Source of the DNA: Eledone cirrhosa
Lineage: Eukaryota
Direction of reading: 5' to 3'
Assembly: GCA_964016885.1 (NCBI GenBank)
Contig: OZ024750.1
Location: 29,326,001 to 29,390,000, forward strand
Length of the DNA stretch: 64,000 nucleotides
The stretch's first letter is position 1. The number at the start of each line of letters is the position of its first letter. Positions 3,062 to 64,000 of the stretch are shown piece after piece. Below the pieces are notes generated by a model that saw only the letters and a list, made by a program, of their open reading frames with translations, was not told the DNA's origin and ran no database searches. Both the position numbers and the translations under genes were made by a program.

Positions 3062-3260
3062 CACTTTACAGCGTGGACTGGGTGCTTTTTGTCGTGACAC
3101 CTACATGACCACTTTACAGCGTGGACTGGGTGCTTTTTGTCGTGACACCTACATGACCACTTTACAGCGTGGACTGGGTGCTTTTTGTCGTGACACCTAC
3201 ATGACCACTTTACAGCGTAGACTGGGTGATTTTTGTTGTGACACCTACATGACCACTTTA
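3062..3260. repeat. 48-bp minisatellite, about 4 copies, amplified inside a family C element
   Basis: Unit cactttacagcgtggactgggtgctttttgtcgtgacacctacatgac. Confidence 0.9.
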
Positions 3261-3537
3261 GTGTTGATTGGATGTTCTGTGGTACCAACATAACTTTACA
3301 GAGAAAGGGTGGTGTGGGTGGTAGTGGGAGAATGGAGTAGGGGTTGTGGGTTGAAGTTACAATAATCAAATAAATATGACTTGGAAAATGAAAGAAAATA
3401 TGAGAGAAAAAATAATTTAGTACTATCATAATATCACCACTCCAGTGTTCTATATCCAAACAGTATATAAGCTGTATCAATACAGTATATAAGCTGTATC
3501 AATACAGTATATAAGCTGTATCAATACAGAGTAAGTA

Positions 3538-3587
3538 AATACCACTGATGATGGATTAAAAATTCTGAAACACTACTGTCTGCCATT
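3538..3587 (+). ncRNA. Degenerate hammerhead motif in PFN4 intron (stem I broken)
   Basis: AATACCA-CTGATGA-T GGATT AAA AATTC T-GAA-ACA CTAC TGT-C-TGCCATT; GUC site; two mismatches in stem I. Confidence 0.5.
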
Positions 3588-3935
3588 CTCACAGCTACTG
3601 AGATAGCTGTGACATGATCACAGCTTAAAACATTTATAGCGAGACTTATATATGTATATTATACATAAATATATCATATATGCCATAATATATACCTCTA
3701 TCATAAACTATACTGTTGTATTGTAACTGATAAATAATTTCTTCTTTTATTATATGCAATGGATTGTTTTATTTTAGGGCAGTGGATTGGCAGTTATCGG
3801 TAGAGCGTTGGACATGTTTCGTGGCATAGAGTTACGGCCCTTTGCGTACCGAGTTCAAATCCTGCCAAGGTTAACTTTGCCTGTCATCCTTACGGGGTCA
3901 ATAAAATAAAGCACCATTAATGCACTGGGGTTGAT

Positions 3936-4148
3936 TTAAGCCTTTAGCATTTACATTACTTTATATTTATTTTTGTATTTTCACAGTAAAGACTTTATCT
4001 CACATAGTATTGAAGCTAGATTTTGTTGTTATTTATTTTGAGAACATTATCTTAACATTAGTATGAGTGGCCAATTATGGCTGGTTTGAACAGAAAGAGG
4101 TGAGAGAATCCTGGCCGGATACGGCCAGTTTAAATGCTAAAGGGTTAA
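3936..4148. mobile_element. TTAA-targeting (piggyBac-like) MITE nested in a SINE
   Basis: TIR (c)cctttagcatt...aatgctaaaggg flanked by TTAA. It splits the SINE motif gatttaa|ttgacccc. Confidence 0.85.
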
Positions 4149-4463
4149 TTGACCCCCCCCCCCCCCCCAATTGCTGGCCTTGTGTCTATAGTAGAAATCA
4201 TTATATGCTGTGGATAAGGGTGGTAGACTGGCATTATCAGTAGAGTGTCAAAGCATGAGACAACATGCTTTGCGGTATATAGTTACAACTCTATACATTC
4301 TGAGTTCAAATCCTGCTGAAGTTAGCTTTGCCTTTCATCCTTACGGCATTGACAAAATAAAGTACCAGTAATGCACTGGGGTCAATTTAATCAACATTTC
4401 CCTGCACCAAAATTGTTGGTCTTGTGTCTACATCACAAACCATTATATGTTTCTTCTTTGTAG

Positions 4464-4598
4464 TTGGATTATAAAGATATTGCAAGTTTTGAGTATGCTT
4501 TCAAAAACCCAATGTTGGTCAGAGAAAAAGGACTGGAGTATAATAAACTCACATATTCTGTAACTCGAGCTGAACCAGACACAGTTTATGCTAAGATG
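4464..4598 (+). CDS. PFN4: Profilin-4-like, coding exon 2 (LDYKDIASFEYAFKNPMLVREKGLEYNKLTYSVTRAEPDTVYAKM)
   Basis: Acceptor ttcttctttgtag, donor gtgagt, 135 nt open frame phase 0/0. Matches the PFN4 F.KNP...R..GL......Y...RA.....YAK pattern. Confidence 0.92.
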
Positions 4599-4769
4599 GT
4601 GAGTAGTTTCTTTATCCTTTTGAAAGTTAATCTATGTGTGTAATGTGTTATGTCTTTATGCATAAACGAATACACTGCAGCAGTTTAATAACAATACAAT
4701 CAAAACAAACGGCAATAACCACACGTAACGGAACAACAATCTTTTAAGAACCAACAATCCAACACACTA

Positions 4770-5349
4770 ACTCGAACTGTGAACTTGAACTCCAACTTTG
4801 ACTATCAACACACGAACTGTGGAACTAGTACCAACTTTGACTATCAACACACGAACTATGGAACTAGTACCAACTTTGACTATCAACACATGAACTGTGG
4901 AACTAGTACCAACTTTGACTATCAACACACGAACTGTGGAACTAGTACCAACTTTGACTATTAACACACGAACTGTGGAACTAGTACCAGCTTCGCCTAT
5001 CAACACACGAACTGTGGAACTAGTACCAACTTTGACTATCAACACACGAACTGTGGAACTAGTACCAACTTTGACTATCAACACACGAACTGTGGAACTA
5101 GTACCAACTTTGACTATCAACACACGAACTGTGGAACTAGTACCAACTTTGACTATCAACACACGAACTGTGGAACTAGTACCAACTTTGACTATCAACA
5201 CACCAACTGTGGAACTAGTACCAACTTTGACTATCAACACACGAACTGTGGAATTAGTACCAACTTTGACTATCAACACACGAACTGTGGAACTAGTACC
5301 AACTTTGACTATCAACACACGAACTGTGGAACTCGTACCAACTTTGACG
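4770..5349. repeat. 39-bp minisatellite, about 15 copies
   Basis: Unit ccaactttgactatcaacacacgaactgtggaactagta. Confidence 0.95.
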
Positions 5350-5540
5350 ATTTTTTTCTCCAGCAGTCGCATATCCTCTGCAGTTCCTGCCCATGTCTCA
5401 CTACCATGCAGCATCATGCACCTCACACAGGCATCATATAACCGGCCACTCGTATGCAGGGAGAAACCCTTCTTCATCAGCAGAGGAAGCATCTCCCTAA
5501 ACTTCTTCCAACCCGTCCTTATTCTAGATACTATGGCTTA
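5350..5540 (-). mobile_element. RTE-type LINE ORF2 fragment
   Basis: Translation ...RTGWKKFREMLPLL..KGFSL...GRLYDACVRCMMLHGSETW, typical of the region after RT in RTE LINEs. Confidence 0.8.
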
Positions 5541-5772
5541 AACGAAGCTAATTTTAACTTGTTGACTTAAAATTCTTGTTTTTGTAACAACTATGTATAT
5601 ATATAACTGCAATTCGTCAGATTCATCGAGTGAGCTAGGCGCTGGCCGTGGGAAGCTGAATCTATACCAGCGGTCTTTGTTACACACACACACATATATA
5701 TATACATACATATATGTAAGTTTTAGAGGTGCAAATTGATTGCGTCTTAGGCGTGAGTCTAGATGTTAACAC

Positions 5773-5820
5773 ATATCTGAGGAGCTGTCAATTCCAGAGT
5801 CAGTGAACCATATGTAATAT
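5773..5820 (+). ncRNA. Degenerate hammerhead motif in PFN4 intron (A15.1 mutated to C)
   Basis: ATAT-CTGAGGA-GCTG..CAGT-GAA-CCATATGT-A-ATAT. Lies between TA-rich tracts. Confidence 0.5.
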
Positions 5821-6275
5821 AGAATTAAATATGTATATGATGCAAAACTGATTCTTTGTTCCCTTATATATTATTATATATGTGTATATTTATTCATTTC
5901 ATTTACTGGCAATATTTTCATTTTGTGCTACTTCTCACACAATCCGTTTCATTTTAAATAGTTTTTTTTTTTTTTTTTATGAAATTCATGTATTAACTGT
6001 TTACTTGTTCTGTATTCTCAACAGCAGTATAGTATCTGCTAATCATCTTTAAAAAAATAGTAGTTTAGATTTGCAACTAACAGATAATATCAGCAACAGA
6101 AAGACCAATGGAAACATGGTTTCCTTGGTTCAGTCTGACAACCAGCTCTGGTGGTGAGTTTAGTTTTGTAGGATAAAAGTAGAATTGTTTCTTTTCTGTG
6201 TGAATATAAAGATGAAATTGCAAGCATGAGACATCAACCAACTCAGCCAAAACAATGTGTCTGTGTCTATTCCAG

Positions 6276-6381
6276 GATAAAAAAGGGATTATTATGGTAA
6301 AGACCAATACATTCATGATTATAGCCACTTATACTGATAACATGTATCCGAGTGTATGTATTGAAGCTGTTGAAAGAATGG
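6276..6381 (+). CDS. PFN4: Profilin-4-like, coding exon 3 (DKKGIIMVKTNTFMIIATYTDNMYPSVCIEAVERM)
   Basis: Acceptor ttccag, donor gtgagt, 106 nt phase 0/1. The ATY..MYPS.C.EA.E motif is characteristic of profilin-4. Confidence 0.93.
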
Positions 6382-6774
6382 GTGAGTAGGATTTTTTTCT
6401 TCTTACAATTGAAATCCTTTTGACATTTTGTCTGTTTATACATTGATGTTACTAGGAAATGGGTGGGGTAAGTTCTATATCAAATTTCTGTCTGTTTATA
6501 CACAGATACTACTGCAAAGTGTGTGAGAAATCTTTAACATCTTGTTTATGTTTATACACTAATGTTACTAGGTAGTGTGTGGGGAAAGTTCTATATCAGA
6601 TTTCTCTGCTCTAAAATAACTTGAACTTCAGAACCTTGAGGGCTGAAACTAAATTTATCTTGTGTGCGACAAGAGACAATGCCTTATATTGTTGTTGCTC
6701 TGCTTATGGTTAGTTCTGATCTATCAGACCTATAATCAAAGACCATCTCATCGTTTTCCAAGAAACAGAAGTAA

Positions 6775-7640
6775 ACAATCCATTGTCTGGTTTAACAGCA
6801 CCAAGACATGAGAGTAAACTTAATCCATTGTCTGGTTTAACATCACCAAGACATGAGAGTAAACTTAATCCATTGTCTGGTTTAACATCACCAAGACATG
6901 ATAGTAAACTTAATCCATTATCTGGTTTAACATCACCAAGACATGATAGTAAACTTAATCCATTATCTGGTTTAACAGCACCAAGATATGATAGTAAACT
7001 TAATCCATTGTCTGGTTTAACATCACCAAGACATGATAGTAAACTTAATCCATTGTCTGGTTTAACATCACCAAGATATGATAGTAAACTTAATCCATTG
7101 TCTGGTTTAACATCACCAAGACATGATAGTAAACTTAATCCATTGTCTGGTTTAACACCACCAAGACATGATAGTAAACTTAATCCATTGTCTGGTTTAA
7201 CATCACCAAGACATGATAGTAAACTTAATCCATTGTCTGGTTTAACATCACCAAGATATGATAGTAAACTTAATCCATTGTCTGGTTTAACATCACCAAG
7301 ACATGATAGTAAACTTAATCCATTGTCTGGTTTAACACCACCAAGACATGATAGTAAACTTAATCCATTGTCTGGTTTAACATCACCATGATATGATGTT
7401 AAACCAGACAATGGATTAAGTTTACTATCACCAAGACATGATAGTAAACTTAATCCATTGTCTGGTTTAACAGCACCAAGACATGATAGTAAACTTAATC
7501 CATTGTCTGGTTTAACATCACCAAGACATGATAGTAAACTTAATCCATTATCTGGTTTAACATCACCAAGACATGATAGTAAACTTAATCCATTATCTGG
7601 TTTAACATCACCATGATATGATAGTAAACTTAATCCATTG
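6775..7640. repeat. 45-bp minisatellite, about 19 copies, one inverted
   Basis: Unit ccattgtctggtttaacatcaccaagacatgatagtaaacttaat. Confidence 0.95.
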
Positions 7641-7664
7641 CCTTATTTATTTATATACTAACGT

Positions 7665-8665
7665 TTAACTCTTTAGCATTTAAACCGGCCAGAATTCTCT
7701 CACCTCTTTCTGTTCAAACCAGCCACTTATGCTGATGTTTAAGTATTGTTCTCAAAATAAATAATATCAACATCTCGTAGATTCAATATTATGTGAGATA
7801 AAGCCTTTACCGTGAAAATTCAATAGTAAACAAAGTAATGCAAATGCTAAAGGGTTAAATCATTTTTGTCATTGACAATACAAAATTTCTATTTTATTTT
7901 GTTTTATAGCTGATTATCTGAAAAGGAAAAATAAATAAACTACTGAAGGTAAATAAATTAAAAACAAGACAAAAAAAAAAAAAAAGGAAATTTTTAAAAA
8001 TAAAATTTCAATTTGTGGTGAAAGTTATGAAATAGATTTTATCAAACAGAATTATATTTTTATATCTTTCAATTTCTGTTATAATTCAAATGTTTTCAAA
8101 TCTTACAATTTATCAAAGTTTTTGTCTTTCTTTAGAAATATAACAAACGAGTTAACCCTTTAACATTTAAACTGGCTGTATTCGGCCAGAATTCTCTCAT
8201 CTCTTTCTGTTCAAACTGGCTTCTCATACTTATGTTAAAGTATTGTTCTCAAAATAAATAATATCAAAATCTCATAGATTTGATATTATGTGAGGTAAAG
8301 CCTTTACTGTGAAAATATAATATTATATATATAGAGAGTAATGTAAATAGTAAAGGGTTAAACCCAATTTGCTGTTTTAACTCCTATTGACATTTCAGTG
8401 TGTTATTTGTAGAGAAAATACTGTGCCAGAGACAATGTAAAACCATTTAACCCTTTAGCATTCACATTACTCTATATTTATCATTGTATTTTCACAGTGA
8501 AGGCTTTACCTTACATAATTATCTCACATAATATTGAATCTACAAGATTTTGATGTTATTTATTTTGAGAACAATTCCTTAACATGAGTATGAGTGGCCA
8601 GTTACAGCTGGTTTGAACAGAAAGAGGTGAGAGAATTCTGGCTGGTTTAAATGCTAATGGGTTAA
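7665..8665. mobile_element. Three copies of the TTAA MITE around the PFN4 last exon (7665-7858, 8152-8361, 8447-8665)
   Basis: Same TIRs and internal sequence. The third copy is inverted relative to the first two. Confidence 0.85.
7910..7938 (+). CDS. PFN4: Profilin-4-like, last coding exon (ADYLKRKNK-stop)
   Basis: Acceptor ttttgttttatag. Phase 1 completes GCT. DYL.+K C-terminus as in PFN4. Total CDS 387 nt = 128 aa. AATAAA motifs at and after the stop. Confidence 0.88.
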
Positions 8666-31413: not shown

Positions 31414-31506
31414 GGAAGACATGATATGAAGGTTAAAAAACACTTGTGGATAGTGCAGTTTTAAATCAACATATCTATATATATATACACGTATATATAT
31501 ATATAT

Positions 31507-31727
31507 ATTAAAATAACATTAAAGTTTAAGCCAATAATCGCTGCTTTCACCCTTAACGGGATCTTCTGAAACTAACAAAGTCAATCTGTAAACGCAGAAG
31601 TGGATATTTAAAAAAACGTTGCAACCGGAGAAAGAACTGCGTTTACAGATTGACTTTGTTAGTTTCAGAAGATCCCGTTAAGGGTGAAAGCAGCGATTCT
31701 TTGCTTAAACTTTAATCTGCTACTTTA

Positions 31728-31773
<46 letters not shown>

Positions 31774-32030
31774 ATAATAATAATAAAATTGAAGACTAAA
31801 ATCCAAAGAGGGCTCGATAAGGAAAAATATATATCAAATATATAAGAACCGTAGAGCAAATATTTATTAAATAACAGATTAAAGTTTAAGCAAAGAATCG
31901 CTGCTTTCACCCTTAACGGGATCTTCTGAAACTACTGCGTTTACAGATTGACTTTGTTAGTTTCAGAAGATCCCGTTAAAGGTGAAAGCAGCGATTCTTT
32001 GCTTAAACTTTAATCTGTTATTTAATAAAT
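31507..32030. repeat. Two adjacent palindromes of the same roughly 90-bp unit, separated and flanked by (TA)n
   Basis: First palindrome: arms end at 31597 and start at 31637 (39-bp spacer). Second palindrome: about 31860-31934 versus 31958-32030. Confidence 0.9.
31661..31711 (+). ncRNA. Hammerhead-like motif with variant core CAGAAGA (further copies at 31523-31573 -, 31883-31933 -, 31959-32009 +)
   Basis: AGTTT-CAGAAGA-T CCC GTTAA GGG T-GAA-AGCA..TGCT-T-AAACT. All three stems present; position 4 is A instead of U. Confidence 0.6.
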
Positions 32031-33414
32031 ATATATATATATATATCCTGCTAGCATGCCAAGAGACCAGCATGACCAACAAGTTGTGATCTTACCTGGC
32101 TAGACTACTACCTGCTCTTGCCTGACAACTTTATTAGAGAAACCAAGAGTGAGAGAAAAAGGGGGGGGGACCAAGAGAGAGGGAGAGAGAGAGTGTAAAG
32201 TGACCACCCAAGTCAGTTATAGTAACAACTATAAAGACAACATGATGGGTGTGGTGGTGGTGGTGGAAAGAGATCGTTGCGTTTAATGTTTACGATGACA
32301 GTAATTATAGTGGTAGAGGCGGTGGGTATGTCAACTCAAGGTAAAGAAAGAAGGAAATAGTCCTGACACAGTTGTAGTTTTTGTAGATGTTTTCACTTAA
32401 TAATAATTGTTTCTACTTTTGGCACAAGGCCAGCAAATATACCAGTTCATTACTGGTACTTTATTTTATCGACCCTGTAAGGATGAAAGGCAAAGTTAAC
32501 CTCGGAGGGATTTGAACTCAGAATGGCAAGGGCCGTAACTCAATGCGTCAAAGCATGGCGCCCGACCCTCTACCGATACTGCCGATCCACCGCCCTTAAT
32601 AATAATAATAATGGTTTCTGATTTAGGCACAAGGCCAGCAATTTGAAGGGAAGGGAAAAGTCGATTAAATCGACACCAGTGCATTACTGGTACTTCATTT
32701 TATCGACCCCTTAAAGATGAAAGGTAAAGTTAACCTCGGTAGGATTTGAACTCTATGCTGCGAAACATGTCCGACGCTCTACTGATTTTGCCAATCTACC
32801 GGACACCACTAACGACCTAAACAGTAAGAAGCAGTGTAGTTTAGCCATTCCATACAACATTCATTTACTTTACAACAGATGTTTCTCAAAGTCGTAAACA
32901 AAAACCTTACACACAAACGTGTATGGTTGTCTGTCTCTCTCTCTATAAGTGTCTATGTCAACCTGACTGTCTATCTGAGTCTCTCTCTCTCTCTTTCTAT
33001 CTATCTGTCTATGTTTGTCTCTGATTCTCTCTCTCTCTCTGTATCTATCTATGTGTATGTCTATCTACGACGTCCCCGCCTTCATGAAGCTATCCGAAAC
33101 ATACAAAGTGCAAAGTAGTCCATTTTTTCATATTTACTCAGTGACAGTGAAATAATTGAATAGCACGACTGAAAAGATAAACAGCTACTCTATTATTACA
33201 ACTAATAATGAATAATACACTATGACCACCACTACCACTGATACGACTACTACTACCGCCATTACTACTACTACTACCACTACCACTACCACTACTACTA
33301 CTGCTACTACTACATGTAATATTGAAACATTTTCATATTCTAATTACACTGTAAACAAAATCTCAGGTGTGTTTATAACTGAGGGACTTTAGAAAATATA
33401 TTGTTGACACTGGT

Positions 33415-40442: not shown

Positions 40443-40517
40443 GCTGTCTGATGAGATCAAGGCACTGGTTACGCAAAATTGCATGGCCACTGTCGTCATT
40501 GAAATATGTATCACAGC
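40443..40517 (+). ncRNA. Type I hammerhead ribozyme motif, canonical core
   Basis: GCTGT-CTGATGA-long stem II (GAT/ATT, GGCA/TGTC, TGGTTA/TGGCCA, GCAA/TTGC)-GAA-ATATGTAT-C-ACAGC; AUC site. Confidence 0.8.
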
Positions 40518-41574
40518 CCTATCAATAAAGGACTAACATCTGCAACTACATCGCATTTTCTTATCCTATATACTGTAAAGTGGTTGTGTAGGTGTCATGA
40601 CAAAAAACACCCAGTACTCACTGTAAATAAGGGTGGCATTAGGATAGGCATCCAGCTGCAGAAACCAAACCAAAATCAGTCCTGTATGAACAAGACATGG
40701 TCACCTGACCTAGCATTGCCCACAACAGGACAACCTGTCTAACCCATGCTAACGGGGAAAATGGACGTAAGACGGAGGTGATGATGATATATGTATATAC
40801 ACACAAATATATATATATATATGTGTGTGTGTGTATGTTACAATGGTACCACAAAACATCCAGCCCACTCTCTAAGTGGTTGTGTAGGTGTCACGTCAAA
40901 AAGCACCCAGCCCACACTGTAAATGTGGTTGGCGCTAGGAAGGGCATCCAGCCGTAGAAAGCAAGCCAGAAACTGTCCTATATGAGCAAGACACGGTCAC
41001 CCGACCCAACTTGCTTTAAATGGGATAAACTCGTCTAACCCATGCTAGCGTGGAAGATGGATTTTAAACAATGATGATATATCAGAGTCCACCTGGTTGC
41101 TTTAACAACAATATAAAGCCAATTGAAATCATGTTGAGAGTTTTAACAAGCATCAAACATATATTTCTAGTAGTGTCCTCCTATATAATGCCATCCCTTC
41201 TAAACTATATGTTAGTATTGCCCTTCTATATAACTATATGTTAGTATTGCCCTTCTGTATAGTACCATCCCTTCTATATAGGTATATGTTAGTATTATCA
41301 TTCTATATAGTACTGTCCCTTCTATATAGTACCATCCCTTCTAGAGAGTACCATCCCTTCTAGACAGCTATATGTTAGTATTGCCCTTCTAAATAGTGCC
41401 AACCCTTCTATATAGTACCAACCCTTCTAAATAGCTATATGTTAGTGTGTGGGTGGGAGAAGACAGTATATCTTTCTTTCATGTTGACATGGGTTGGACA
41501 AAGAAAGTAAATCAAGTATGTAGGTGAGAGTAGGGAGTACATCTTTCTTCAGGAAATCTGTATTGAAATATACA

Positions 41575-57400: not shown

Positions 57401-58029
57401 TATTGCTGATACTTATTTTTAGTTGAATATGCTGAAGCAACGTCATATGAAGTGTTTTGCACAAGAACACATGGTCCAAGAATCAAACCCTCGACATTAT
57501 GATTGCACATCTAAGACCCTAAGCACTAGGCCATATGCCTTCACTTAGTATTATTTCCTCATTAAAACACCTGAAAAACTTAACAGATGCAACCTCATAG
57601 GAGACCAACTTAACCTGTATAGGTGTGAACTGAATTGTCAATTTTATTTTTGTGTATATGACGCATTGTATGCGTATGTATATGAGCCTTCACCTCCCTT
57701 CTGAGAGGTCAAGAAACAGTCCACTAAACTGAGGGGTCTCTTGATAAGCTTTATAACATCACAGCGATGGTGCACTTTTATAGTGCAGGATTGCAGCAAG
57801 ACAAAGTTGGGACTTTGAAGAAAAAATAGGTATATGTTTGTCTATTATTTCCTCGCATTTATAATTTGATTATATATATAATGGGTGACTGAATATATAC
57901 TTTCATAAAAAATTTGATTATATATATATATATATATAAAATGACTGACTGAATATACACTTTCTCCAAAAAATTTTTTGTTTCTTTTCTCATTCTCTAT
58001 CTTTCTATTTCATCTTATTTCTTATTCCA

Positions 58030-58065
58030 TCTTCTGATGAAGGACTAGTGTCTGAAAAGTTAAGA
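58030..58065 (+). ncRNA. Degenerate minimal hammerhead, same family as 40231-40266
   Basis: TCTT-CTGATGA-A GGAC TAGT GTCT-GAA-AAGT-T-AAGA, with the shared downstream sequence tatatcaagcgttaa. Confidence 0.55.
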
Positions 58066-58155
58066 CTTCTATTATATCAAGCGTTAAATTAATAATTTCT
58101 TCATTTTACTGTGTCATCTGTTTTGTTGTTTCTATTTACTTTCTTCATACACACA

Positions 58156-58397
58156 CAGGGCCAGCGCTAACCATATAGGCAAACTAGGCAGCCACCTAGG
58201 GCACTGATTTTAGGGGCGCATTTCTCCAAATCAACAACAATTTTGAAAAATAAATTTCAGTTTTATTGAGGGTCGTTTTTTTATCCAGGGACTAATAAAT
58301 GTTGAAAACATTTAAAAAAAAAATTGTTTATAAATTTTGAAATTGATATTTTCCTGGGGGAAAATCTAAGATGCCAGATAGTTTGGCACAGGCCCAG
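58156..58397. mobile_element. Probable hAT-like MITE
   Basis: Imperfect CAGGGCC..GC termini. 8-bp tacacaca on both sides, but within a CA repeat. Confidence 0.5.
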
Positions 58398-58537
58398 TAC
58401 ACACACACACACACGTATTAGTTCCAAATTGGGATAAGTGAGATAAAAAAAATATATACAAATGGATAATTCTTTATACGTATATGTATGTTTTTATATC
58501 TAGATATATATTTTTGTTTATCTTTGATAATGTGTCT

Positions 58538-58578
<41 letters not shown>

Positions 58579-58589
58579 CACACACACAC

Positions 58590-58624
<35 letters not shown>

Positions 58625-58864
58625 TTCGTTTTTGAAAACAAGATGGTGTAGGACAGAACAAAGGAGACAAAATAAAAACCCAGTCACTAAGGAGGCCACA
58701 GAATGTGTGACAAAAGAGCTTTGACAATATAGAAACAACCATCTGGTTATCAAACCAACCAACCAGCCAACCAACCAACCGGAAATTTATAATAAATTGA
58801 AGTGAAAACTAACAGGTGCGTGTGTTTTTATTGGCAACATGAACCTCCCAAAGTATTATATATT

Positions 58865-59022
58865 TATCATCATCATCATCATCATCATACGTCCGCTTTT
58901 CCCTGCTTGCAAGGGTGGGACGGGTCTTATTCAGCACAGCATCTCTCCACTCGTCACGGTCCCTCGTCATCTCCACCGTGAGCTTCAATGATCTGAGGTC
59001 TGTTCTCACCACCTCCGCCCAT
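58865..59022 (-). mobile_element. RTE LINE extreme 3' end
   Basis: WAEVVRTDLRSLKLTVEMTRDRDEWRDAVL and a (GAT)n tail. Confidence 0.75.
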
Positions 59023-59069
<47 letters not shown>

Positions 59070-59386
59070 TACTTTATAATGAAGATGTAGGGTTAATAGA
59101 AATGACCCCAGGATATTACTGTCACTGGCCTATGTTGTCTAACGAGGTGATGAAACTAAATATTGTGACATGTGACGCTATTGATTCTATCAATGTCACT
59201 GCACACCTAATTACTTCAGTATTGATCTGCTTTCATTACTGTTTATGTAATATATACTTAGTATGGTGCAGATTCTGATCAATTACATTGATAAGCAATG
59301 TGGTAATGGACATCTTAATGGTTGTGTGTGTGTACAACTGTGTGTTATAGATAGTTAGACAGAGAGAAAAAGATAAATAGGTCGAG

Positions 59387-59422
<36 letters not shown>

Positions 59423-59505
59423 CCATTCAATGTCCATTTTCTGCGTTAGCATGGATTAGTTGAGTAGTTGTGAGACAAGTCAGATCAGGTGAAAATGTCT
59501 TGCAG

Positions 59506-59545
<40 letters not shown>

Positions 59546-59578
59546 AAGCATGGAAAAACGGACACAAGAACAAAGATG

Positions 59579-59866
<288 letters not shown>

Positions 59867-59994
59867 TGACCATGTCCATTTGTCTGTCTTAGTTAGAATC
59901 TCATGACAATGTAACAGTACATAGTGAAGGTAGTGTGTAGAAAACTGAAAATGATTAGAAACAACTATATTTTAAAGATGTAAACACTATTCCA

Positions 59995-60545
59995 TCATTG
60001 TATATACTTGTGTATAAGTCCTCATCCTTTTCATCAGTTATGTAAGGACCACTCAATTATTGTATATACTTGTGTATAAGTCTACACCAGTTATGTAAAC
60101 ACTTCTCAATTACTGTATATGCTTGTGTATGTAAGGACCACTCACTGTATATACTTGTGTATAAGTCTACACCAGTTATGTAAGGACCACTCAATTACTG
60201 TATATACTTGTGTATGTAAGGACCACTCACTGTATATACTTGTGTATAAGTCTACACCAGTTATGTAAGGACCACTCAATTACTGTATATACTTGTGTAT
60301 AAGTCTACATCAGTTATGTAAACACTTCTCAGTTATTGTATACACTTGTGTATAAGTCTTCACCAGTTATGTAAACACTTCTCAATTACTGTATATACTT
60401 GTGTATAAGTCTTCACCAGTTATGTAAACACTTCTCAATTACTGTCGTCCAAACCCATGCAAGCGTGGAATATGGACGTTAAACGATTATGATGATGACT
60501 TGTGTATAAGTCTTCACCAGTTATGTAAACACTACTCAATTATAG
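59995..60545. repeat. Irregular minisatellite
   Basis: Recurring tgtatatacttgtgtataagtc..caccagttatgtaa blocks. Confidence 0.85.
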
Positions 60546-60740
60546 TCATTCCCCTTCCCTTCAAATCATTGGCCTTGGAGGGACAATTATTTTCACATGA
60601 ATTCTAGTTAAATCTCACACAACATTATGTAACAAATGGGAGGACTCTTCCTTAGTTCAACAACCTGGCTGTATGTAGAGGTTACATTGAAGAGTGGCAG
60701 AGAAGTAAACAACAACAGCAGTGTTGAGGCCATTCCCCTG

Positions 60741-60968
60741 TTAACCCTTTAGTGTTCAAACTGGCCAAAACCGGCCAGAATCCTCTACCTCTTTCTGTTG
60801 AAACTGGCTGTATCTGGTCACTCAAACTGATGTTAAGGTATTGTTTTCAAAATAAATACTTTCAAAATCTCATAGATTCGATATTATGTGAGATAATTAT
60901 GCGAGGTAAAGCCTTTACCATGAAAATATAATAGTATATATAGAGTAATGTGAATGCTAAAGGGTTAA
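60741..60968. mobile_element. TTAA MITE copy
   Basis: Same TIRs, nearly identical to 42887-43114. Confidence 0.85.
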
Positions 60969-62136
60969 AGTAGAGATTAGCCTTATGGAGTAAAGGAGTT
61001 GGGGCCAATGATAGGCTTTTCACTCATCATAGGGTCCTTTCTGAGGCAACGTTTTACAGCTGGGCTCCTCTAAATCTGGGAGTAACCCTTTTAGTCATCT
61101 CTTATGACAAATAAGGATATGATTATAGTGTAGCTATCCTAAACTAAGTAAATATTAAAAATAATAACATTGATAACTGAAAATATAATATATATATCAT
61201 CTGTCTGTTATATAGCAGGCGCCTCCTATTGTTTACAAATCTTGCTTCAAAGATATTTAGTTTGTTTTGCATATACATATATGTAGACAGCTATGTTCGA
61301 AGCTAAATTCTAATTCTATTATAAGTTGAGCCAACTTATACAGCCTTATATGCAAATGAGATTAATCATCTCATTTACACAGACAAGAAAACTATTTATT
61401 CTCGCCTGTTTTCAAAGTCCATCAGTTGCAAGAGCGGGAGGGATTGTCCTGGCAAGAACCAGTCGAGTTTGAAATGCATTGACGATTGTTCCCTTACTTC
61501 TGCTCGACACCACTGGGTGCTGCTAGCTGCCAGTGTTTTTGCATAGCTACAGCTTTCTAAATGTTTATTTATAAACATATCGTAATTCTTTAGAAATACG
61601 AAATTCAATACATACATACATATATATATATATGCATGATATATAAATATATGATATGTATATAGAGAAGAGCTGGCCTAAACGCCATAAAGCCAGTTTA
61701 AAATTGTATTTATGATAAGTGTGTGGGTAAATAGGTGCACTAAACCCTTAAAAAGGACTTAATAGCATATAAAGGAGAGTTTTTTTAATTTCAGGTGTGT
61801 GTATGTGTATGTATATATATCTATATACACATATGTACATACATTATATATATACTGGCAGTATCGGTATAGAGTCGGACGCCATGCTTTCCAGCATAGT
61901 TACGTCCCTTTACAATCTGAGTTCAAATCCCGCCGAGGTTGACTTTGCCTTTCATCCTTACGGGGGTCGATAAAATAAAGTACCAGTAATGCACTGGGTA
62001 ATTGCTGGCCTTGTGCCTAAAGTAGAAACAATTATATATATACTGAGCACATTTTTTTCCTTGATCTATTTCTTCGGAAAGTCTTCACACTAAATATATA
62101 TATATATATATTTGTTTGTATATATATATAAATGTT

Positions 62137-62167
<31 letters not shown>

Positions 62168-62192
62168 GTTTGTGTATATATATATGTTTGTG

Positions 62193-62242
<50 letters not shown>

Positions 62243-62330
62243 TGTGTATATATATATATAAACAAGGTTTAGTAAATAATGAAAAAGTTTCAAAATAAAT
62301 TTTAAAAAATTGACTTTACCTACTATAGTT

Positions 62331-62414
62331 ACCTTTACCGATCGGTTTCGAATCCCAAAAATAAAACGGAGACCATACGGCCTTCGTTGCAAAGAAAGAT
62401 TCTCGTCAGAAGGT
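62331..62414 (-). ncRNA. Type I hammerhead ribozyme motif (left arm of palindrome)
   Basis: Reverse complement of the right-arm motif, with perfect palindromic stem III ACCGATCGGT followed by A (GUA site). Confidence 0.87.
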
Positions 62415-62600
62415 TCTTTTCATTCAAAGAATATAAAATTCCTGAATTTAAATCACAAACTAGCGCTATCAAAAACTGTTCCTGGGATGAGAGTGGATGA
62501 TGTAGAACAGGTTTATCAAGGGCCGTATCCCAGGAACAGTTTTTGATAGCGCTAGTTTGTGATTTAAATTCAGGAATTTTATATTCTTTGAATGAAAAGA

Positions 62601-62684
62601 ACCTTCTGACGAGAATCTTTCTTTGCAACGAAGGCCGTATGGTCTCCGTTTTATTTTTGGGATTCGAAACCGATCAGTAAAGGT
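62601..62684 (+). ncRNA. Type I hammerhead ribozyme motif (right arm of palindrome)
   Basis: Stem I ACCTT/AAGGT; core CTGACGA; stem II GAATC..GATTC extended by AACG-AGGCC/GGTCT-CGTT; GAAA; stem III ACCGATCAGT (one mismatch); cleavage triplet GUA. Confidence 0.85.
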
Positions 62685-62892
62685 AACTATAGTAGGTAAA
62701 GTCAATTTTTTAAAATTTATTTTGAAACTTTTTCATTATTTACTAAACCTTGTTTATATTTGTTCTGGCTCGTTAATTTATTAACCCGCCATTGAACCAC
62801 ATTGGCACTTGGTTGGACAATACATGCGTACCTTGGCGCCTTGTGCGTGAAGGGACGTATTTCATATTACTATATATATATATATATATGTT

Positions 62893-62923
<31 letters not shown>

Positions 62924-62926
62924 GTT

Positions 62927-62966
<40 letters not shown>

Positions 62967-62987
62967 TGTGTATATATATATATATAT

Positions 62988-63198
62988 GTATGGACACGTG
63001 ATGCGCATGAAAGTCGATAGCTGTATAACAAAGTGCAGGGCAATAAAGATAGACGGTAGCCACGGAATAGGCAGACCTAGAAAAACCTGGGACGAGCTGA
63101 TAAACTCCGACCTCACACACTTACACCTCTCCAAGACAATGTCACTGGACCGAGACCTTTGGCGGTACTCAGTAACAGAGAAGACCCGCCTTACCTAA
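62988..63198 (+). mobile_element. RTE LINE 3' fragment
   Basis: YGHVMRM...[15 protein letters not shown]...DRDLWR. Confidence 0.8.
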
Positions 63199-63299
63199 AT
63201 ACATAGTAAAACCTACTACAGCCAGTAGGCATCTCTAACAAAATACCCCCCCCCCCCCCGTCCCACCACCACCACCCCGTTCTATGTAAAGTTATGTTG

Positions 63300-63577
63300 G
63301 TGCCACACCATCCAGGCCGAAACAAAATGAGATCGTGTAGGTGTCACGACAAAAAACACACAGTCCACGCTGTAATGTGGCCGTGTAGGCAACACGGTAA
63401 AAACCTCCCAGACCCACACTGTAAATGTGGTTGGTGTTAGGAAGGGCATCCAACTGTAGAAAACCTGCCAGACAGTCCTATGCGAGCAAGACAATCACTC
63501 TTGCCTCAAGTGGGACTACCCCCCGTCCAAACCCATGCAAGCGTGGAACACGGACGTTAAACGTTGATGATGATGAT
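63300..63577 (+). mobile_element. Short retroposon family C with RTE-like 3' end (others near 2850-3260, 8900-9040, 14950-15120, 22981-23280, 28500-28745, 38180-38450, 40570-41080)
   Basis: ggttggtgttaggaagggcatccagc body and ggacgttaaacgatgatgat tail, similar to the RTE LINE tails in the window. Confidence 0.7.
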
Positions 63578-63612
63578 ATATATATATATATATATATATA
63601 TGTTTGTTTGTG

Positions 63613-63644
<32 letters not shown>

Positions 63645-64000
63645 TTATATATATATATAGACAAAACAAACAAAATATCTGAAGCCAGATATGTGAGCAT
63701 TAGGAAGAGCCTGCAATATAACACAGGAACAAGATAAACAATATAACCATGTTGATTTATTGTCAACAATCTCAGATGAAAAGTGTTGGAGGGGGGTGAG
63801 GGTGGGGATAGGGAAAAAATGATGAGTTGAGTAAATGGGAAATATTACATTTGTAAATGGGTCAGTGTAGTTGGGGGGGGGGGGGGAAGGGGTGTAGCTG
63901 GGGGAGTGTAGTTATAGGGGAACTGAGTGTAGATATGAATGGGGGAGCAATGCAGTTATGGTGCCCCTCCACAATCCCGGGGTGTAGTTATAAGGGGAGG

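Follow-up and report, generated by a model that had tools for sequence, protein, structure and literature searches.

Non-LTR retrozymes of animals are known as non-coding repeats built of tandem monomers (Cervera and de la Pena 2020, PMC7229834; Li, Clavereau, Pollet 2026, bioRxiv 10.64898/2026.07.22.740005), each unit being low in GC and carrying one type I hammerhead, the forms with a short palindromic stem III being reported as active in dimers (PMC7229834). They have been proposed as non-autonomous derivatives of Penelope elements (PMC7229834; bioRxiv 10.64898/2026.07.22.740005), their mobilisation having so far been inferred mainly from co-occurrence and phylogeny. The repeat family described here is alike in all of these structural respects, with a monomer of 483 nt as compared with RNAs of 170–400 nt in the former source and 51–972 bp in the latter. 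It differs from them in presenting dispersed copies with fixed ends, targeting of (TA)n and head-to-head pairs, and it is described here from its DNA; the words octopus, inverted and microsatellite are absent from the main text of PMC7229834, and the accessible text of the bioRxiv report does not describe insertion ends.

Penelope-like elements of the Hydra clade (Craig et al. 2021, PMC8557442) resemble our family in their insertion into (TA)n, in the hammerhead lying upstream of their ends, in their partial tandems and in the presence of an inverted, 5'-truncated copy together with a tail at one end. Our element is distinguished from them by having no ORF, by a tail of 108 nt (88–173 nt across nine families) rather than 30–40 bp, and by the one-ended tail, reported as occurring 'often' in PMC8557442, being near-obligate in head-to-head pairs here. 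Another close relative in behaviour is the Poseidon element PAc of the green anole (Frangieh et al. 2024, PMC11167929), in which two internal start sites of reverse transcription downstream of the hammerhead likewise define the tail, the target is likewise AT-rich and both of its strands are cut and extended; a dimer is predicted for PAc, and uncleaved RNA is a good template. Homology to the target is lacking at the start sites of PAc, whereas both of ours (hereafter sites A and B) carry AT/TA microhomology to it; the PAc start sites, moreover, did not differ between the two strands in vitro, whereas ours are used one per arm, and a paired hairpin motif is not among the features described in the accessible text of PMC11167929.

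Inverted 5'-truncated copies with a tail at one end had already been published (PMC8557442; PMC3846280), as had two tail-defining start sites in vitro (PMC11167929), and the origin of the inverted repeats and one-sided tail of Penelope-like elements has been called an open question (PMC8557442, PMC11167929). A rule for the pairing of sites A and B and paired hairpins were not found in print, in a search that mostly left out subscription journals, and published figures of tails may show part of them. In twin priming by L1, a single RNA is copied from primers on both target strands, and the product is a 5' inversion, arranged head to head, whose inner joint shows microhomology. The second priming site of L1 arises by chance from an internal match, without overlap between the two parts, whereas our family uses a fixed second site and has overlapping arms that may be longer than one monomer.

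The locus under study lies near one end of the window, by which we mean the whole 64,000-nt stretch of Eledone cirrhosa DNA that was analysed. It is an ordinary copy, probably dead, belonging to a retrozyme family that is itself new but of an established kind, and its value lies in the rule that this family reveals about Penelope-type integration. We consider it highly probable that the locus is a head-to-head insertion of a young, non-autonomous Penelope-type retrozyme, produced by twin priming at two fixed sites; this reading brings together the observed anatomy, the (TA)n target, the two ends and their pairing rule, the near-identity of the arms and a layout common with Hydra-type elements.

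Anatomy of the locus and its hammerheads

The initial annotation described an inverted repeat with arms of 233 nt each separated by a gap of 38 nt, with a lone mismatch in stem III of the plus copy and no ORF, and our analysis bears out these points: the arms lie at 62256–62488 and 62527–62759, the mismatch is between 62339 C and 62676 A, and the stop-to-stop frames of at least 100 aa are a 112-aa frame over the junction and frames that enter the TA repeats. The reported extent of 504 bp holds for the palindrome but not for the element, whose right border lies at 62867–62872 and whose total length is about 617 bp. The whole insertion (62256–62872) consists of two pieces that both derive, with 5' truncation, from a 483-nt tandem repeat; they meet head to head at 62527, where they overlap by 1 nt. 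With unit position 1 set at the first base 3' of the predicted hammerhead cut, the left arm (62256–62527, minus strand, 272 nt) runs from unit 292 to 80 with 100% identity to the reference monomer, and the right arm (62527–62872, plus strand, 346 nt) from unit 331 to 188–193 with 99.4% identity. Both arms are fused to (TA)n at their 3' ends, the left one at start site A (62256–62259) and the right one at start site B. Site A (ATAT, unit 77–80) is read through in the right arm at 62756–62759 (plus strand), and the 108-nt tail between sites A and B (62760–62867, plus strand) is consequently found on one side of the insertion only. The 38-bp spacer (62489–62526) is not a separate loop or promoter module but ordinary unit sequence, namely positions 293–330 on the minus strand, copied by the left arm only, and the earlier idea of self-cleaving transcripts starting in it was not supported. 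The perfect palindrome is the stretch that happens to be common to both truncated arms.

The target is a compound (TA)n/TGTTTGTG microsatellite, with a left part at 62090–62255 and a right part at 62873–62990, in which the repeat unit has one orientation on both flanks (62166, 62184 and 62238 on the left; 62888, 62922 and 62962 on the right), as expected of a target interrupted by an insertion; target-site duplications are unreadable inside (TA)n. On its right, the microsatellite is adjoined by the 3' fragment of a LINE-like reading frame, which we take to be RTE-like, followed by SINE-like sequence (62990–63580). Another composite region of the window, at 60001–60547, is a tandem array with periods of 53 and 85 nt that is broken by a SINE-like fragment. 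The window's SINE-like elements would suit an octopod.

Each arm carries one type I hammerhead, as had been recognised in the initial annotation, and a strict layout scan of the whole window returned exactly these two, with cores at 62606 (plus) and 62409 (minus). Both are made of a stem I of ACCTT/AAGGT, the CUGACGA segment, a stem II of 53 nt closed by GAATC/GATTC, GAAA, stem III and GUA, and their predicted cuts fall after 62679 (plus) and 62336 (minus), the positions given earlier. The minus copy (62331–62414) has an intact palindromic stem III. In the plus copy (62601–62684) the change of G to A at 62676 removes the outer pair of stem III (C.A) and breaks the dimer palindrome, the GUA triplet and the core still being intact. 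Since the self-duplex of stem III is strong in the intact form (–16.6 kcal/mol) and weak in the plus variant (–4.8 kcal/mol), activity, if any, is expected from dimers; dimer activity of hammerheads with a short stem III has been reported for amphibian retrozymes (PMC7229834). As free monomers, the hammerheads fold into a rod in which bases of the core are paired, and the fold is not more stable than those of shuffled sequences (z –0.9 and –1.7). The copy at this locus is predicted to be a dead end yielding no monomer or circle, because each strand carries a single ribozyme and neither arm amounts to a full monomer.

A match to the hammerhead models of Rfam, which had been suggested as a check, was not obtained at the locus: the plus arm (62527–62790) gave 0 matches at E≤10, and the 44 weak matches in the region 58000–64000 included no hammerhead, being otherwise microsatellite-driven miRNA noise. 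The 53-nt stem II is the likely cause of the missed match. The fold is backed instead by covariation of the stems across 13 diverged copies: both partners have changed in 8 of 13 pairs, with 91% of the cells paired versus 27–53% in slid controls, the shuffle control for covariation being inflated by the relatedness of the sequences. The palindrome of stem III is retained through a double change, and the core is invariant save for N7 among these copies, which were chosen by the core pattern.

A repeat family with two fixed ends

A search of the 3.0-Gb genome produced 1426 family candidates, with hundreds of dispersed copies and with tandem arrays of up to 4270 nt (about 9 units). The monomer, as defined from the tandem copies, is 483 nt long with a GC content of 39% and has no long ORF; together with the hammerhead, these are the marks of retrozymes. 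The arms of the locus are 99–100% identical to this monomer, in agreement with the proposal of a young insertion. The further proposal that the element is a Penelope-type retroelement, non-autonomous and equipped with a hammerhead, is sustained by the hundreds of dispersed copies and by a layout equal to that of an autonomous Penelope-like element of the genome. Exact junctions between site A (unit 80) and (TA)n number at least 571 genome-wide and those between site B (unit 188) and (TA)n at least 102, the latter being counted with a pattern that misses ends at 190–196 and variants; the reversed-pattern control gave 0 in both cases. B ends span unit 188–196, and the two sites are 108 nt apart. 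The monomer also occurs in public runs listed under organism A (X1–X3, X5 and X11–X13) and by run X4 of organism B, in which one 513-nt contig closes the tandem joint.

The pairing of the two ends was analysed in 190 mapped loci, comprising the 30 best DNA matches plus 90 A-junction and 70 B-junction loci, each drawn from the first 100 listed. Once duplicates had been merged and insertions cut by a locus edge removed, 184 distinct complete insertions were left, of which 105 are head-to-head, 77 single-armed (54 with A, 19 with B and 4 other) and 2 of another form. The head-to-head insertions comprise 99 with A+B, one with A+A, none with B+B and five with one end unassigned, so that the ends are mixed in 99 of the 100 cases in which both could be assigned. 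Anchoring of the sample is not the source of this rule, because the partner was the other site in 39 of 40 insertions of the A-anchored set (39 A+B, 1 A+A) as well as in all 45 of the B-anchored set (no B+B); independent choice of ends reaches a best log-likelihood of –58.6 versus –4.7. On the other hand, with 77 of the 184 insertions being single-armed, double priming may not be obligatory, or second arms may often be too short to see. A MITE or foldback DNA transposon was also considered as the nature of the family and rejected, since the ends differ (A versus B) in 99 of 100 cases and the copies are tandem and 5'-truncated.

The same pairing recurs in other families. A pattern for variant cores retrieved 897 further hammerheads, mostly belonging to a sister retrozyme family with units of 477–485 nt that are 48–50% identical to the first family; in 63 of its loci we found 18 A+B pairs (two of which, L210 and L211, resemble one duplication), no A+A, no B+B and one odd case. 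A third family, caught in the flanks, shows 14 A+B and one A+A, while the autonomous family with an 808-aa ORF presented below has 9 head-to-head cases in twenty 10-kb loci, 6 of them A+B and the rest unclear when counted by eye. Five other by-catch families yielded ends and no scorable pairs. (The sister family comprises several subfamilies with compensatory changes in all three stems, an example being L103:5042–5827 on the minus strand.) At 31501–32032 of the window, an abundant leader family of Hydra type has inserted head to head twice, side by side; one insertion is B+A and the other was scored as A+A, the lone exception among 15 pairs of that family.

Origin of the paired arms

The two arms of an insertion differ by a median of 0.8%, versus 2.5% for their difference to arms of other insertions (p 2e-8), as computed for the 51 of 98 A+B insertions that share at least 100 positions. 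This near-identity fits one template, one source locus or later gene conversion. Because most arms cross the ribozyme cut site (202 of 274) and 100 are longer than one monomer, the usual template was probably a multimer or a circle, either of which fits the longer arms equally well. The lengths of the two arms are uncorrelated (rho –0.08), and arm lengths and junction points differ freely between insertions. Their joints overlap by 1–10 nt in 56 of the 98 insertions, are blunt in 25 and contain extra bases in 17, the spectrum expected from end-joining.

The 5' stops of the arms are enriched about twofold around the cut site, in both halves of the sample: 19 fall at unit 3–12 versus 6.7 expected (scan-corrected p 0.005, 234 arms), and stops are likewise raised just upstream of the cut (474–483). 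In the sister family the corresponding counts are 3 versus 1.5 at positions 1–15 (p 0.19) and 7 versus 2.6 at positions 1–25 (p 0.02). We did not retain this excess as a fossil of cleavage, since it lies on both sides of the cut and is weak in the sister family, and a pause at the structure would produce it too; as a trace of ribozyme cleavage it is suggestive only. The stop rate is low at unit 181–240 and 101–130. Collision of two polymerases on one circle was also rejected, because stops are not enriched where the other start site lies.

In the mechanism that we favour, a tandem source locus would be transcribed into an RNA template in the form of a multimer or circle, and a Hydra-clade Penelope-like enzyme acting in trans would cut both strands of (TA)n. 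A complex with two sites, which could plausibly be dimeric, would bind the bulged hairpin situated 3' of each start site (see below), and each 3'-OH of the target would pair by 2–4 nt with AU/UA in the RNA. Reverse transcription would thus be primed twice, once at A and once at B, probably on one RNA molecule; the two cDNAs would run towards its 5' end, stop at unrelated points and then be end-joined, the palindrome being the part copied by both. That the start sites did not differ between the strands of the PAc target in vitro counts against this mechanism.

The most direct rival has been published for rotifer Penelope elements, the head-to-head palindromes of which were explained by self-priming (PMC3846280), and it would have the inverted arm arise here from fold-back of one cDNA or from an antisense template. 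The near-identity of the arms and a few exactly symmetric joints (e.g. L101 and L151) speak for it, and 60 of the 98 insertions are compatible with the nesting that it entails. In the other 38, however, this locus included, neither arm is nested in the other and each has sequence private to it, which argues against self-priming and rules it out for these cases unless extra template jumps are added. Symmetric joints, moreover, are not enriched (9 of 98 versus 5.9 expected, p 0.13), and fold-back gives no account of the second end being almost always the other fixed site; we therefore regard it as quite unlikely. Only a little less doubtful is the idea of an asymmetric complex whose halves each prime a separate RNA from one source locus, the first half at A and the second at B. 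The uncorrelated arm lengths favour it, as do stops that show no build-up at the point where a polymerase would run into the start of the other and template ranges of the arms that mostly overlap (on one circle, just 12 of the 98 insertions would have separate ranges), but arms are three times closer within than between insertions, and if the two RNAs were free there would be no obvious reason for 99 mixed pairs out of 100.

A selected ribozyme/dsRNA switch, as entertained in the initial annotation, or a hairpin-RNA gene producing a Dicer or ADAR substrate, seems very improbable. Read-through RNA would indeed form the 233-bp duplex that had been foreseen (the 617-nt fold is predicted at –424 kcal/mol), and that part of the claim stands as a predicted fold. 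As a function it does not, the duplex being only a by-product: arm lengths, junctions and palindrome lengths differ in every insertion, the palindrome is a chance overlap of the arms, the spacer is plain unit sequence, and the copy is less than 1% from the family monomer, which leaves no time for selection to show. That the locus should be a fold-back artefact of sequencing or assembly is scarcely conceivable. No read spanning its joint was seen in four public runs of reduced-representation data, yet either arm holds sequence absent from the other, the microsatellite keeps one orientation on both flanks and about 100 other loci obey the same end rule. Raw DNA reads of three separate libraries, furthermore, contain three of the family's strand-switch joints, two of which recur in every library, as well as the tandem joint and, at site A, TA tracts.

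Twin priming at the two fixed sites may also have a wider bearing. Tentatively, we suggest as a real possibility that Penelope-like elements and animal retrozymes practise programmed double priming, with one RNA bearing two hairpins and one reverse transcriptase protomer on each. Both cut ends of (TA)n would then be extended at once, in retrozymes along a circle made by the ribozyme. If this is true, an element with a two-site RNA template would be marked invariably by its inverted pLTR and by a tail on one side, and this type of template would occur in an enzyme family sister to telomerase.

Candidate RNA signal and candidate partner elements

A bulged hairpin is predicted just 3' of site A at 62762–62797 (plus strand), with a stem of 4 bp, a UU bulge of 2 nt and a further stem (z –2.3; 3 of 200 shuffles as good). 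Its counterpart 3' of site B would occupy unit 197–216, absent from this insertion, and has a base of only 3 bp; the hairpin after B is never copied at an end. The common motif begins with YUC, closes with GAR and has a 3' bulge of 2 nt starting with U. Defined post hoc, after most of the sequences had been seen, and with several of the families related and the offsets of the autonomous family shifted by a few bases in the scoring, it starts at most 10 nt 3' of 14 of the 18 start sites from nine families of this genome, the remaining four failing, versus 2.9% of other positions that pass. The bulged hairpin is thus a strong lead for an RNA signal that could mark each start site. The minimal RNA of the anole element likewise extends 3' of the start sites (PMC11167929).

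The genome also contains a young autonomous family with intact ORFs of 808 aa, whose two ends lie in (TA)n at a distance of about 173 nt. By eye, the single ORF presents a reverse transcriptase followed by a C-terminal GIY-YIG domain, with RWK, DKT, CxCX5C, CxxC and CxH motifs, and the description of the Hydra clade in section 11 of PMC8557442 matches these motifs as well as the (TA)n targets. By its motifs and target, the family would therefore be assigned to the Hydra clade; Pfam gave no match to the full-length ORFs of candidate helpers, and a related ORF fragment had a sub-threshold GIY-YIG match.

For the retrozyme itself, a Hydra-clade enzyme is the likely class of partner, as judged from layout and a short motif. 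The order of parts and the short hairpin motif are common to the monomer and the autonomous families, among which, in the small part of 14,586 candidate coding places that the partner search took in, we found no autonomous element with sequence similarity to the monomer. No ORF of a Penelope-like element (PLE) abuts the monomer in the 190 loci, and coding families in twenty 10-kb and thirty 3.4-kb loci showed no similarity to it except for a sister-family array at L312. Comparisons of leaders gave z of at most 3.1, and three pattern searches for the partner returned a handful of other families that did not include it.

The family nevertheless provides a near-absolute, countable rule for Penelope-type integration, namely one A end plus one B end, and the same genome provides a candidate RNA signal for each start site along with intact candidate enzymes. 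With these three in hand, the question of the inverted repeats is now testable in vitro with a 483-nt RNA.

At L312 (G000:C4, about 171.18 Mb), the sister-family array of about 2.2 units (3199–4257) ends in a TA tract and is directly adjoined by a near-full-length autonomous element of Hydra type with an open frame of 790 aa (4270–7804), the two neighbours probably reflecting nested targeting of one TA tract. Upstream of the ORF at 4344 in L294, a variant hammerhead of doubtful activity was recognised by eye, with CCGAAGA in place of CUGANGA and a putative stem II of about 100 nt. The genome is altogether very rich in type I hammerheads. Within the window, the layout of an unrelated family, with stem I GCTGT/ACAGC and a short, AT-rich stem III, is found near a TA junction at 40443–40519 (plus strand, core at 40448), and at least four further dispersed families occur in the flanks of the loci, some as inverted pairs (L027:969; L112:301 and 3084; L156:736; L171:2926; L190:3674 and 3802; L101:3932; L141:3051 and 3839; L294:9211 and 9379).
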